From the NCBI GenBank assembly GCA_003162415.1, contig PMOL01000005.1:53726-117725 (forward strand): a DNA stretch of 64,000 nt, read 5' to 3'. The DNA comes from Candidatus Dormiibacterota bacterium. GTDB lineage: Bacteria; Chloroflexota; Dormibacteria; Aeolococcales; Aeolococcaceae. The position numbers and the translations under genes were made by a program. This document shows positions 3,540 to 7,861 of the stretch, piece after piece. The notes beneath the pieces are model-generated. The model made no database searches and had not been told where the DNA came from. It saw nothing but the letters and a program-made list of their open reading frames with translations. Numbering within the stretch: the stretch's first letter is position 1; every line of letters starts with the position of its first letter.

Positions 3540-4940
3540 ATGTCCCAGGCCCCGTCCACGATCGGTGAGTTGCGTCGCGCGGAGTACCGCGTCCTGCCCG
3601 TCAGGACCGAGCTTCGGCGCAACCTGATCCGCAAGCTCAGCAACAACGAGGAGCTGTTCGGCGGCATCCGCGGCTACGACGATTCGGTCATCCCGCAGAT
3701 CGAGAACGCGATCCTCGCCGGCCAGGACATGGTCCTGCTCGGTGAGCGCGGGCAGGCGAAATCGCGGCTCATCCGTGCCCTGGTCACGCTCCTCGACGAC
3801 GCGGTGCCGGCGATCGCGGGCTGCGAGATCAACGACGACCCCTACGCGCCGATCTGCCGCCGCTGCCGCGACCTCGTCGCCGAACATGGCGACGCGACCG
3901 AGCTCGCGTGGCTCAGCCCCGAGCAGCGCTATTCGGAGAAGCTCGCGACCCCGGACACCTCGATCGCCGACCTCATCGGTGAGGTCGATCCCATCCGGGT
4001 GGCCGAAGGGCGCTACCTCAGCGACGAGCTCACCATCCACTACGGTCTGATCCCGCGAACCAACCGGGGAATCTTCGCGATCAACGAGCTCCCCGACCTC
4101 GCCGAGCGCATCCAGGTGGGCCTGCTCAACATCATCGAGGAGCGCGACGTGCAGATCCGCGGCTACCGGCTGCGCCTGCCACTCGACGTGTTCGTGGTTG
4201 CGACCGCGAACCCCGAGGACTACACCAACCGCGGACGCATCATCACGCCGCTCAAGGACCGCTTCGGCGCCCAGGTCCGGACGCATTACCCGCGCACGCT
4301 CGATGACGAGATCGCCATTGCCGAGCAGGAGCGCATGACCTTCGATGACATGCCGGTCCCGGTCACCGTGCCCGGCTTCATGCAGGAAATCGTCGCCGAG
4401 CTCTCGCACGTGGCCCGCCGCCATCCGCAGGTGAATCAGCGCAGCGGCGTGTCGGTCCGGCTCACCACCGCCAACTACGAAAATCTCGCAGCCGGCGCCC
4501 TGCGCCGCGCGCTGCGCACCGGTGAGCGGGAGGCGGTCGCCCGCATCAGCGACCTGCCCGCGCTGATGTCTTCCACCGCCGGAAAGATCGAGCTCGAGAC
4601 CTGGGAGGACGGCGATGACGGCGCAGTCCTCGAGAAGCTGATGCGCACCGCATGCAACAACGTGTTCCGCCGCCACTTCACCGTTCAGGAGTTCAGCGAC
4701 CTGGTGCAGCGTTTCGACCGCGGCGGATTCACCGTCGAGGTCGGCGACCAGCACACCATCGCGCACTACGCGCAGGCGCTCACCGAGCTCGGCGGCGTCG
4801 AACGCGCGCGCCAGCGACTCGGCGAGCCGGACACCGACGCGATGCGGGTAGCGGTCCTCGAGTTCGTGCTCGAAGGCCTCCACCTCGGGAAGCGCCTCAA
4901 CAAGACCGCACTCGAAGGAAGCGCGGTCTATGGAGGATGA
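3540..4940 (+). CDS. AAA+ ATPase, Mg-chelatase/sigma54-interacting-like (Rv0958 type)
   Basis: LGERGQAKSR P-loop, INELPDL, ANPEDYTNRGRIITPLKDRF. Confidence 0.85.
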   Translation: MSQAPSTIGELRRAEYRVLPVRTELRRNLIRKLSNNEELFGGIRGYDDSVIPQIENAILAGQDMVLLGERGQAKSRLIRALVTLLDDAVPAIAGCEINDDPYAPICRRCRDLVAEHGDATELAWLSPEQRYSEKLATPDTSIADLIGEVDPIRVAEGRYLSDELTIHYGLIPRTNRGIFAINELPDLAERIQVGLLNIIEERDVQIRGYRLRLPLDVFVVATANPEDYTNRGRIITPLKDRFGAQVRTHYPRTLDDEIAIAEQERMTFDDMPVPVTVPGFMQEIVAELSHVARRHPQVNQRSGVSVRLTTANYENLAAGALRRALRTGEREAVARISDLPALMSSTAGKIELETWEDGDDGAVLEKLMRTACNNVFRRHFTVQEFSDLVQRFDRGGFTVEVGDQHTIAHYAQALTELGGVERARQRLGEPDTDAMRVAVLEFVLEGLHLGKRLNKTALEGSAVYGG

Positions 4941-7122
4941 CGCACCGGGGGAAACGCCCCGCACTCCCGCACCTGCTGACGACTCTCCGGAATCCGAAGA
5001 AGCGGGCTCGCGAGGGATTCCCCCGCGGGTGCATCGCTTCAGCGTCTGGGATGGCACCCAGGACCCACTCGGCGACGACGCCGACGCGCTCTTCGACCGC
5101 CTGAGCGAGGACGTCTTTCACGGCTGGGATTTCGAGACGGCACTGCGCCGCCTGCTGAGCCAGGGCTGGCGCGACCGGGATGGGCGAAAGTTCGCCGGCC
5201 TCGAGGAGCTGATGGACCGGCTCCGCAAGCAGCGTCAGAAGCAGCTCGAGCGCTACAGCCTCGACAACGTCTTCAAGGACATCGAGGAGAAGCTCGACAA
5301 CGTGCTCCGGCTCGAGCGCCAGGGAATCGACGAGCGACTCAAGAACGCAACCGATGGCAGCGCGCAGCGCATCCTCGAACGCGTCGCCAAGAAGCGCCGC
5401 GAACACCTCGACAACCTGCCCCAGGAGCCAGGCGGCGCCATCCGTGAGCTGCAGGGCTACGAGTTCATGGAGCAGCGAGCCGAGCAGGCGTTCCAGAAGC
5501 TGCTCGAGGAGATCAAGCAGAACGTCGTCAACACATATTTCAAACAGATGGCCGAGCAGATGGGCCAGATGTCGCAGCAGGACATCAGCGCGCTGCGCGA
5601 GATGGCCCGCGACCTCAACGCATTGGTGCGCCAGAAGCTCGAGGGCGTGCCCGACGCGCAGCTGCAGCACAACTACGAGGACTTCCTGAAGAAGTGGGGC
5701 TCGATGTTCCCCGATGCGCCGGCGACCTTCGACGAGTTTCTCGCGCAACTCGCTGCGCAGATGGCCCGCATGGACTCCCTCATGCAGTCGCTGTCGCCGG
5801 AGCAGCGCCATCAGCTCGAGGAAATGATTTCCGCGACCTTCGGCGACCCCGACCTGCAGGCACAGCTCGCCGAGCTCATGGGCGGCCTCGAACTGCTCTC
5901 CGATCGCCGGCACCTCGGCCAGCGATACTCGTTCTTCGGGAACGAACAGCTCCCCTACGATGAGGCGATGGGCGTCATGGATCGCCTCCAGTCCATCGAG
6001 GAGCTGGAGCGCGGTCTGCGCGGGATGTACCGCGGTGAGCCGCTCGACAGCACGACCGAGGAAGCGCTTCGCGACGTCCTCGGTGACAACGCAGCGCGTG
6101 ACCTCTCGCGCCTACAGCGCATGACCGATCAGCTCGAGCAACGCGGCCTCGTCGAGCGCGATGAGGAAGGCATGCGATTGACCGCGCGCGGGCTCAGACG
6201 CATCGGACAGAAGGCCCTCGGAGACCTGTTCGCGCGCCTGCGACACGACCGCTTCGGAGACCATCCGATATCCCGGCACGGCCAAGGGGGCGAACGCGAA
6301 GAGGACACGAAGAATTACGAATTCGGGGACGTGTTCGATCTCGACGTCCGCGAGACGCTCATGAATGCGGTACGGCGCGATGCGGATGAGCGTGACTTGC
6401 GGCCGGCGGGGATTCCGGCTCCGGCTTCAAACCGGACTATTCAGCCTCCGCCGGAATCCCCACCGGCCTCGGCTAAGTCTGGGCTGCGGCGCTCTGTGCC
6501 TCGACTCTCGCCGGAAGATTTCGTCGTGCATCGGTCCGATACGCTGACGCGGTCGGCGACTGTTCTTATGCTCGACATGAGTCGGTCTATGCCATTGCGC
6601 GGATATTTTTATGCCGCCAAGAAAGTTGCACTTGCACTCGACTCATTGATTCGCAGTGCTTATCCTCGGGACACGCTTCACATCATTGGGTTCAGTGATC
6701 TGGCGCGGGAGATCAAGCCGGCGGCGCTGCCGCATCTCTCGGTGAATGAGTACGTGTATGGGACGAACATGCAGCACGGGTTGATGCTGGCCCGCCGGCT
6801 GCTGGCGAGGGATCCGGGGGAGAACAAGCAGATCATCATCGTGAGCGATGGCGAGCCGACGGCGCATATTGAGAACGGGCGTCCGGTGTTCTTCTATCCG
6901 CCGCTGCCGGAGACGTTTCACAAGACGTTGCTCGAAGTCAAGCGGTGCACGCGGGAGAACATCGTCATCAACACGTTCATGCTCGAGTCGAACCATCACC
7001 TCGTGCAGTTCGTCAATCAGATGACGCGGCTCAATCGCGGGCGGGCTTTCTTCATCAGCCCGGACCGGTTGGGAGACTATGTCCTCGTCGACTACGTGAG
7101 CTCCAAACGGGGAGCGGCTTAG
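4930..7122 (+). CDS. vWA domain protein (Rv0959 type), partner of upstream AAA+
   Basis: MIDAS DMSRSM, GTNMQHG, SDGEPTAH; overlaps AAA+ stop. Confidence 0.85.
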   Translation: MEDDAPGETPRTPAPADDSPESEEAGSRGIPPRVHRFSVWDGTQDPLGDDADALFDRLSEDVFHGWDFETALRRLLSQGWRDRDGRKFAGLEELMDRLRKQRQKQLERYSLDNVFKDIEEKLDNVLRLERQGIDERLKNATDGSAQRILERVAKKRREHLDNLPQEPGGAIRELQGYEFMEQRAEQAFQKLLEEIKQNVVNTYFKQMAEQMGQMSQQDISALREMARDLNALVRQKLEGVPDAQLQHNYEDFLKKWGSMFPDAPATFDEFLAQLAAQMARMDSLMQSLSPEQRHQLEEMISATFGDPDLQAQLAELMGGLELLSDRRHLGQRYSFFGNEQLPYDEAMGVMDRLQSIEELERGLRGMYRGEPLDSTTEEALRDVLGDNAARDLSRLQRMTDQLEQRGLVERDEEGMRLTARGLRRIGQKALGDLFARLRHDRFGDHPISRHGQGGEREEDTKNYEFGDVFDLDVRETLMNAVRRDADERDLRPAGIPAPASNRTIQPPPESPPASAKSGLRRSVPRLSPEDFVVHRSDTLTRSATVLMLDMSRSMPLRGYFYAAKKVALALDSLIRSAYPRDTLHIIGFSDLAREIKPAALPHLSVNEYVYGTNMQHGLMLARRLLARDPGENKQIIIVSDGEPTAHIENGRPVFFYPPLPETFHKTLLEVKRCTRENIVINTFMLESNHHLVQFVNQMTRLNRGRAFFISPDRLGDYVLVDYVSSKRGAA
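6401..6468. repeat. Intragenic 19-bp inverted repeat (1 mismatch), 30-nt loop
   Basis: ggccggcggggattccggc (6401-6419) ... gccggaatccccaccggcc (6450-6468). Confidence 0.85.
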
Positions 7123-7126
7123 GCGG

Positions 7127-7861
7127 GTGGAGTTCAGGGGGTATCTGGATCACATTCGCGCCGACGGCGATCTGATCGCTGCGCTCGCACCGCGCGGGTT
7201 GCATCTGCTCGTGCCGGTCTGCCGGCCGTGGGATGTGCGCGGGGTCGTTGCGCACCTGGCGGCGGTGTACGACCACAAGGTGATGGCGATGCGGCTCGGG
7301 CGCAAACCCAACCAGGGCGAGTGGGTGACCGACGAACCCTACGGCAAGGACACCGTTGAGTGGTTCGAGGACGAGCACTCGAAGTTGCTCGCGGAGTTCA
7401 TTGCGCACTCGCCAAGGGAGCAGGCGTGGTCGTGGTGGGAGGCCGACCAGACCGTCGGGTTCTGGTACCGGCGAATGGCGCTCGAAACCGTCGTGCATCG
7501 CGTCGACGTGGAGACGCAGTTCGGGCCACCGAGTGCCATCGACGCGGCGCTCGCGGTCGACGGTATCGACGAGGTGCTGACGATCATGCTGGCCGGTGCG
7601 GATGACACGGCGGCCGCGATTCCAGGCACCGGGACCGTCGAAGTGCTCGCGGACGACGCGGCGTGGTCGGTGGTGCTCGAGGACACGCGCACCGTGGTGA
7701 CGCCCGGCCGGAGGACATCACCACACGCGACCCTCTCCGGCGATCCCGCCGAGTTGTTCCTCTATCTGTGGGGACGTGCCCCGCTCGACGGCCTCATGCG
7801 CCGTGGCGACGAAACCCGCATCGTGTTGCTGCGATCCCGGCTCGCCGCGGCAACGCAGTAG
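7127..7861 (+). CDS. Maleylpyruvate isomerase family (MDMPI) protein
   Basis: VPVCRPWDVRGVVAHL, RRMALETVVHRVD, DGIDE motifs. Confidence 0.85.
   Translation: MEFRGYLDHIRADGDLIAALAPRGLHLLVPVCRPWDVRGVVAHLAAVYDHKVMAMRLGRKPNQGEWVTDEPYGKDTVEWFEDEHSKLLAEFIAHSPREQAWSWWEADQTVGFWYRRMALETVVHRVDVETQFGPPSAIDAALAVDGIDEVLTIMLAGADDTAAAIPGTGTVEVLADDAAWSVVLEDTRTVVTPGRRTSPHATLSGDPAELFLYLWGRAPLDGLMRRGDETRIVLLRSRLAAATQ

Follow-up and report, generated by a model that had tools for sequence, protein, structure and literature searches.

A silent-site shift downstream of an in-frame hairpin repeat in a genus of Candidatus Dormibacterota

The Rickettsia palindromic elements (RPE), reportedly described by Ogata and colleagues in 2000, are said to occur both between genes and in frame within conserved genes, where the added peptide is tolerated at the surface or in a linker and the host gene stays functional. 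Repetitive extragenic palindromes (REP), known together with REPINs and their associated tyrosine transposases (RAYT), are described in the accessible parts of two reports as G+C-rich hairpin repeats that are mostly intergenic (PMC3733652, PMC8049555), and the accessible part of the former adds that one of the palindrome's ends bears a conserved tetranucleotide, GTAG or CGTC (PMC3733652). [quoted passage not shown] Here we describe a hairpin repeat that resembles all three, starting from a copy in a window of 64,000 nucleotides (contig PMOL01000005.1 of assembly GCA_003162415.1, positions 53,726 to 117,725 of the forward strand) from the genome of an uncultured soil bacterium of Candidatus Dormibacterota. 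This copy is translated as part of a gene for a 730-aa protein with a C-terminal von Willebrand factor type A (vWA) domain (4930..7122, identified from the open reading frame (ORF) and its translation; all features given by window position are on the plus strand). After fixation of the hairpin, C became scarcer and G and T more frequent at the silent sites of the 100-200 codons 3' of it, on the sense strand only.

The two arms of the palindrome, at 6401-6419 and 6450-6468, pair with a single mismatch, and the claim of the original prediction that they are translated in frame ahead of the vWA domain was borne out: the ORF is open throughout, giving ...DLRPAGIPAPASNRTIQPPPESPPASAKSG... directly ahead of the VWA_2 match (Pfam, residues 544-642, E = 6e-7; an NCBIfam search of the same protein gave no match) and ...RPAGIPAPASNRTIQPPPESPPA... 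across both arms. In protein alignments, an insert of ~26 codons at 6391..6468 is missing from orthologs of the same family's other genera, and sister-family orthologs are ~42 residues shorter at this site (10 loci). The G-rich 5' arm (6401..6419) and the C-rich 3' arm (6450..6468) form a main stem of 19 bp, 16 of whose 19 pairs are changed on both sides among 84 aligned copies of the repeat, and a repeat search lengthened the arms in the vWA gene to 26 nt at 85% complementarity. Between the arms lies an apex (6420..6449) that is near-invariant, as judged from the invariant columns of the copy alignment, and that is made up of a 3x3 internal loop (TCC/TCC), a 4-bp apical stem (6423-6426/6443-6446) and a 16-nt loop (6427-6442). 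The predicted stability of the window hairpin is ~-58 kcal/mol, within a range of about -50 to -60 kcal/mol for the hairpins, and a PPP motif adjoins it. No Rfam family reached its gathering score (the best, tRNA-Sec, had 16.8 bits vs 47, and miRNA-like hairpins had E >= 0.29), and a tRNA or other known RNA behind the conserved apex was rejected, given the lack of tRNA and Rfam hits. Nor does the element look like an intrinsic terminator, as the C-rich arm has no T-run after it, either in the window or in any listed copy, and a terminator scan near the insert found just one small, unrelated hairpin (6542-6558). An alternative drawing of positions 6421-6437 closes the 7-nt loop CTTCAAA with a 5-bp stem and resembles an anticodon arm reading UCA; this fold is probably due to chance, and it competes with the apical stem, which is backed by covariation.

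Codon usage around the insert was compared with that of 2044 genes called in the same genome (3.69 Mb in 22 contigs, 66% G+C, 89.8% complete) by an ORF heuristic, i.e. long ORFs with the expected G+C pattern, using S for the sum of G3 and T3. From the insert across the vWA domain (6370..6900), third-position counts mark out a zone that is rich in G3 and T3 and poor in C3. The 261 codons of 6340-7122 have third positions of A.06, C.28, G.46 and T.20, the genome means being A.073, C.46, G.36 and T.106, and among equally long windows 0.10% have so high a (G+T)3, 0.14% so low a C3 and 1.2% so high a T3. In 150-codon windows the vWA gene ranks 5th of 2044, with S = 0.73 vs a mean of 0.466 (sd 0.049). 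Four-fold degenerate sites in the zone have C.17, G.60 and T.17 (genome.44,.37 and.10), T/(C+T) at two-fold pyrimidine sites is.56 vs.23, and the silent-site A/G ratio lies below the genome value, not above it. The predicted downstream enrichment in G- and T-ending codons is therefore real, and, as described below, such zones recur after a copy in a second gene and after a palindrome in a third. That the shift continues into the next gene, as also predicted, holds in part: the first 60 codons of this MDMPI/DinB-like gene have S = 0.63, but the last ~70 vWA codons are near normal, and the zone is thus not one smooth gradient. Over the first ~130 codons of the MDMPI/DinB-like gene (7127..7516) G3+T3 is moderately raised, and in 13 genus loci its codons 1-60 have an S of 0.53-0.74, which then goes down to ~0.5.

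Upstream of the insert the picture is less clear. The stretch 6100..6321, predicted to be the A-rich counterpart of the downstream zone, does show a mild excess of A-ending codons (A3 =.19, top 1.2%), but (A+C)3 is just in the top 4.2% and the substitution spectrum is symmetric (per-base C>T/G>A 0.9-1.0), leaving the effect marginal. The A3 excess is strongest in this genome and its sister, with a genus mean of.08-.12 vs.04-.06 in sister-family orthologs. Along three large contigs the third-position skew stays level on either strand, with no sign of a replication-scale skew or a nearby origin. Three further candidates for the downstream zone were rejected, namely an overlapping functional element or other synonymous constraint (entropy at the zone's silent sites is not reduced relative to sites elsewhere), weaker mRNA folding (-17.0 vs -18.1 kcal/mol per 60 nt in outgroups, a difference like those elsewhere in the gene) and a general 5'-end "ramp" signature, which is slight and ~20 codons long. 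RNA-library data held only short contigs of relatives (90-99% identity) on either side of the insert, which are uninformative on transcript ends or levels.

Other stretches with unusual third positions were seen in the same genome. A PAP2-like membrane protein gene (G000:C11:366148-366744), over its full length, and an endonuclease III-like gene (nth, G000:C11:147170-147967), over its first ~60 codons, are G3-rich and C3-poor like the vWA zone, with no palindrome detected beside them; both names were read from the translations. In a long ORF (G000:C1:205089-205400) whose translation reads as GGDEF/EAL-like, the first ~90 codons have an extreme T3 content and yield a repetitive Arg/Pro/Gly-rich peptide, probably through an over-extended gene call across a tandem repeat.

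The shift goes with the hairpin in comparisons across loci. Orthologs of the vWA gene are present in 39 of 41 related genomes, and for vWA residues 531-660 S is 0.63-0.82 in 20/20 genus loci with the insert vs 0.44-0.50 in 13/13 loci without it, the latter including a genus of the same family; no ortholog was seen to carry the hairpin and lack the skew. The more distant the taxon, the lower the protein identity of the C-terminal vWA domain (84-90% inside the family, 73-78% to the sister family and 63-69% within the class), which argues that the domain was vertically inherited. A second in-frame copy, with a diverged apex, lies in the linker between the E3-binding and catalytic domains of the gene for E2, a 2-oxoacid dehydrogenase acyltransferase (G000:C7:48811-48877; locus L125 ~1812-1878), and one relative (L098) has the standard apex at this site. 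Over the next ~80 codons S is 0.57-0.88 in 24/24 genus loci with the element vs 0.42-0.56 in 4/4 sister-family loci without it, and the E2 gene has a normal composition outside this zone. The third case involves a palindrome of different sequence: carA and carB are fused in a 1545-aa ORF (G000:C15:225157-229794; locus L126:1158-5795, minus strand) whose linker holds a 24-pair palindrome followed by ~200 G3-rich codons, with S = 0.71 across 23 genus loci. All three zones begin at the insert. Furthermore, a k-mer inverted-repeat scan of the genome found 11 intragenic palindromes of at least 17 pairs, four of which are followed by 80 codons with S >= 0.69 (background probability 0.0011, binomial p 5e-10, with a threshold picked after seeing the data).

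Not every copy has this effect. Two recent in-frame copies in other genes are followed by normal composition (S 0.41-0.47), and the skew is therefore a sequel of the insertion and not what drew it there. With orthologous loci merged, the asymmetry of genes beside intergenic copies is not significant (0.417 vs 0.454, ~1.7 SE); the raw flanks had looked asymmetric, and polarity at intergenic copies was rejected when this was gone after merging. The expectation that every copy would show the same polarity switch accordingly fails, both between genes and at the two recent in-frame copies. In these comparisons, orthologs with frameshifts in metagenome-assembled genomes (MAGs) were used piecewise or left out, and some tallies take in unpublished genomes (G027, G032, G036, G078 and G185). 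The vWA ortholog is broken by frameshifts or a stop in several genus MAGs (loci L013, L015, L016, L018, L019 and L020), which looks like assembly error rather than biology.

The suggestion that the palindrome is a repeat inserted in frame proved right, and the repeat is multi-copy. The genome holds six clear copies, including that in the vWA gene, and one diverged copy, and ~80 further copies were found in related MAGs. The six copies besides the vWA copy are outside called ORFs, and three of them lie between convergent ORFs, 2-5 nt from the stop codons. A search with the 20-nt apex motif, run on contigs with one genome per species, returned 89 matching stretches. All but seven of these are in Dormibacterota MAGs and have the full palindrome; the seven matches in other phyla are without a palindrome, a tRNA or an Rfam family. 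Within the genus the motif is present in 15 of 37 genomes (1-12 type-A copies each, counting our own), as against 0 of 24 sister-family genomes (0 matches with a reversed-pattern control), i.e. the hairpin repeat family is, among the genomes searched, confined to one genus of Candidatus Dormibacterota. Several intergenic copies (C1:272010, C6:84086, C13:184585 and many in relatives) begin a few bases from the TAG or TAA stop of the preceding gene, which suggests either a target preference or an element flank that supplies the stop codon. In one relative, tandem arrays of partial units were seen (L037:701-879 and L101:701-897), four at 53-nt and three at ~88-nt spacing, the 53-nt unit consisting of the apex and 3' arm only.

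When 84 distinct copies were aligned, the central 36 nt were invariant or nearly so and the arms variable. The proposed structure lets 93.4% of cells pair, vs 84.4% in shuffled alignments and 35-55% with the partner column slid, and 17 of the 23 proposed pairs show changes on both sides; none of 500 shuffles matched any of these measures. An apical pair has gone from U-A to C-G in seven copies. The predicted hairpin is thus backed by covariation. Mismatches in the stem, read on the given strand of the 84 copies, are more often A:C (76) than G:T (23), placing the wobble-compatible pairs on the opposite strand, although many of these cells are shared through descent. Two other genes have in-frame copies in single species and an empty site in our genome, the inserted unit being 72-75 nt and essentially the hairpin alone, and it is from these filled and empty sites that we conclude that the element is or was mobile. 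In one of the filled/empty pairs, CAG stands on both sides of the 72-nt insert; the flanks of the other pair are too diverged to judge. Altogether, in-frame copies are found in the vWA gene (20 genus loci), the E2 gene (24 loci) and these two genes. The element is open in each of its three forward frames and meets a stop in every reverse frame, and for this reason the translated copies are all in one orientation.

The vWA copy is old. An insert is present at the site in 20/20 aligned genus loci, 12 with the same apex, seven with a diverged apex that is still palindromic and one with the apex lost, and is missing from 10 sister-family loci, two loci of the same family's other genera and two class-level loci. 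This distribution shows that the copy was fixed in frame in the genus ancestor, in a linker ahead of the vWA domain. The stems vary between species by paired changes, and changes in the apical stem have altered the peptide (Q to R, P to T). Four genomes have no type-A copy besides that in the vWA gene, and conversion from other copies can therefore not explain its conservation there. The hairpin itself has been kept since the genus ancestor by compensatory changes, even at the cost of the encoded peptide. Palindromes can correct themselves via template switching, and the upkeep may reflect either this or selection.

Substitutions, inferred by parsimony at strictly synonymous columns, carry the same strand asymmetry. 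For C>T/G>A per base, moxR and the first two-thirds of the vWA gene give a ratio of 0.9-1.5, the zone 3.5-4.6 and the tail 1.8-2.9, and G>T vs C>A counts are 39:1 and 10:0 in the vWA zone and balanced elsewhere. Likewise, the carAB zone has a per-base C>T/G>A ratio of 2.9 and G>T vs C>A of 37:2. These ratios show the skew at the level of substitutions and do not separate mutation from selection. The core of the prediction, a local signature that is specific to one strand and goes with a coding palindrome, is supported; the nicking or origin-like cause proposed for it is not.

We give a probability of roughly 35% to an account in which the signature is driven by mutation and the hairpin impedes translation, exposing the sense strand or transcript downstream of it. 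A very stable hairpin together with the PPP motif would slow the ribosome, and RNA polymerase would run ahead of it. With no Rho found in this lineage, ribosome-free nascent RNA and the displaced sense DNA strand would be exposed just downstream, e.g. in R-loop-like structures, and sense-strand cytosines would be lost ~4x faster, those on the template strand being protected. Purifying selection on the protein and a genome-wide preference for G- and C-ending codons would then shape the result, with C about equal to T, G raised and A low. Impeded translation is favored because the effect needs an old translated hairpin, runs downstream and touches the sense strand only, with the template spared or even protected. 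As for Rho, PF07497 had 0 hits in our genome and TIGR00767 had 0/41 above cut-off in genomes of the genus and sister family, 13 of them at least 90% complete; the search gave only weak ATPase-like matches. The accessible part of one report proposes that R-loops arise from nascent untranslated transcripts in the absence of Rho (PMC11551753). By hand arithmetic with a single parameter, a ~4.4-fold faster loss of sense-strand C, cutting C at the genome's four-fold sites by this factor and rescaling the total yields A.14, C.15, G.56 and T.15, close to the observed zones save for the lower observed A. The broader claim, that fixed translated hairpin repeats create heritable local strand-specific mutation zones of a few hundred bases in an apparently Rho-less lineage, is put forward tentatively, as one that we hold to be slightly less probable still.

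A number of observations weigh against this account. Slowing, uncoupling and R-loops are all steps that we infer from sequence. The contrasts in vWA, E2 and carAB all fall on one stem branch of the genus and are not phylogenetically independent, and within the genus hairpin stability bears no relation to skew beyond the clade contrast. In the sister family, where carAB is also fused, with other linkers, a sense-strand GC skew is present at this site too, weaker and over a shorter stretch, and the carAB contrast is accordingly not clean. In E2, the C>T excess extends along the whole gene, beyond the zone. The spectrum ratios are, by hand arithmetic, about those of any stationary skewed composition, and in the distal bins of the zone G>C far exceeds C>G (42:5 and 73:20), which hints that the G excess arose on the genus stem and is at present decaying instead of being upheld; parsimony may inflate this difference. 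Four of the eight strongest intragenic palindromes have no effect downstream. The strongest in the genome (28 pairs) lies in dnaE, encoding DNA polymerase III alpha (G000:C18:20228-24088; locus L157:729-4589, minus strand), within a low-complexity insert of ~100 residues after the PHP domain whose length varies in the genus (195-366 nt between anchor residues). This gene was rejected as a fourth replicate, its S across the genus being inconsistent (0.38-0.64) and its spectrum without asymmetry; the G/T-rich stretch in our own genome's dnaE is mostly inside the low-complexity insert.

The main rival keeps the same trigger and a ribosome-poor mRNA, and supposes that C was replaced by G and T through selection since a C-poor, G-rich RNA is fitter, e.g. 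by resisting a cytidine-preferring endonuclease or for some other mRNA-level reason. An RNase preference for cytidines is known from mycobacteria. Direct selection against C predicts nearly the same composition as the mutation-driven version, and we regard it as somewhat less probable than that version. The biggest change at four-fold sites is from C to G (G.52-.70 vs.37), which is not a direct product of deamination, and relative to the N-terminal part per-base C>T is up ~2-fold and T>C down (hand arithmetic), the pattern of a fixation bias; the confinement of the effect to old translated copies suits adaptive recoding as well. On the other hand, a lowered A/G ratio is not expected from selection against C, the mRNA of the zone is no more weakly folded locally than that of outgroups, and the obvious agent, Rho loading on C-rich RNA, was not found: Rho-avoidance as the selective cause was rejected with no Rho detected in our genome or in the 41 genomes.

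It is improbable, though less so than what follows, that the association is a coincidence, the genus having lineage-specific codon usage at certain domain starts and hairpins being merely tolerated in linkers ahead of domains. The single tree branch behind all clean contrasts, the sister-family carAB skew, the inconsistency of dnaE and of four of the eight strongest palindromes, and the G3-rich PAP2 and nth genes with no detected palindrome would all fit such a chance meeting, but it leaves unexplained why three zones begin at the insert, and at gene 5' ends at large the effect is slight and spans just ~20 codons. The binomial value for 4/11 and the absence of both insert and skew from the same family's other genera also speak against it.

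An internal transcription unit, with a promoter in the insert or in the AT-richer patch after it raising transcription and with it strand asymmetry downstream, would account for an asymmetry that starts at the insert, for the moderately raised S in the first 130 codons of the next gene and for the gene-wide C>T excess of E2, which is assumed to be highly expressed. We nevertheless consider it distinctly unlikely. A scan of 6000-7400 found no sigma-70-like promoter, although the sigma-70 model may not fit the promoters of this phylum; same-orientation genes starting after intergenic copies show no general effect; in E2 the composition anomaly is local and the asymmetry gene-wide; and the last ~70 vWA codons are near normal.

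Less likely again is a recombination mosaic, in which the insert and the downstream segment were jointly acquired from a donor with other codon usage. A sharp boundary at the insert and a crown-group net flux of G>C and T>C that looks like amelioration are what it would leave, but identity in the C-terminal domain tracks taxonomic distance, the zone departs from the genome by a strand skew with a reduced A3 and not by a lower-GC composition, and the same kind of event with the same type of junction would be needed in three genes. Lastly, the originally predicted HUH/RAYT-type enzyme, repeatedly nicking or priming at the hairpin and exposing opposite strands on each side in an origin-like manner, is largely refuted and has very little chance left, for although the repeat is mobile and the G/T-rich plus strand downstream matches the leading-strand sign, the Y1 transposase domain PF01797 had 0 hits in our genome and in 0/41 genus genomes against 6/14 control genomes (a search that covered Y1 alone among HUH families), the upstream mirror signal is marginal, with a symmetric spectrum, and neither intergenic copies (no significant polarity) nor recent in-frame copies (none) behave as expected.

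With regard to the neighborhood of the vWA gene, the gene 5' of it (3540..4940) encodes a MoxR/chelatase-like AAA+ ATPase, with Pfam AAA_5 and partial bpMoxR matches and weak NCBIfam chelatase-family matches. It has the usual C3-rich codons (C3 14-22/30, GC3 0.87-1.0). The MDMPI/DinB-like gene (7127-7861), with Pfam MDMPI_N and MDMPI_C, comes directly after the vWA gene.

If the mutation-driven account is true, the trace of transcription-translation uncoupling is visible in a genome sequence with no other data, and mobile palindromes go on remodeling silent sites in their host genes through the lifetime of a genus. Were the hairpin causal, the zones would offer a sequence-only readout of RNA polymerase, ribosome and displaced strand behind a translational obstacle, in an uncultured phylum that seems to be without Rho, and small mobile repeats could impose local mutation or selection regimes on essential genes (E2, carAB). 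In-frame palindromic repeats have so far been treated as passive peptide inserts; here the hairpin is preserved at the expense of the peptide. There is also a practical warning, i.e. that such zones can pass for horizontal transfer or assembly chimeras.

In transcription-associated strand asymmetry and R-loop-linked GC skew, reportedly treated by Francino and Ochman in 1996, by Green and colleagues in 2003 and by Ginno and colleagues in 2012, there is the same excess of G and T on the sense strand and of C>T above G>A; here, in contrast, the asymmetry is confined to 300-550 nt starting at a translated intragenic hairpin, and does not cover a whole transcription unit or promoter. Our literature search, as far as the retrieved parts of the sources go, returned nothing on Dormibacterota repeats or on codon skew beside in-frame palindromes, and no published downstream synonymous-site skew for RPEs. 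A MITE conserves its terminal inverted repeats, whereas in this element the arms vary and the 36-nt center is conserved; a partner transposase is not known (in a search limited to Y1), and a target duplication would be at most ~3 bp (CAG, at one site) and is unproven. Relative to the REP/REPIN-RAYT system, the copies here often lie between convergent genes, 2-5 nt after stops. They differ in having no RAYT (0/41 genomes), a handful rather than hundreds of copies, some of them translated, and no GTAG or CGTC tag beside the stem in the consensus of the 84 copies; a few copies do have GTAG or TAG just 5' of the stem, at the stop codon of the preceding gene. In being a short, G+C-rich, multi-copy and mainly intergenic palindrome the repeat nonetheless shares a feature of REP/REPIN, at a low copy number. 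From RPEs it differs in its ~72-nt unit, near-invariant apex, co-varying stems and low copy number (1-12 type-A copies per genome). With intergenic copies and in-frame copies that keep the reading frame open, it is RPE-like by functional class.

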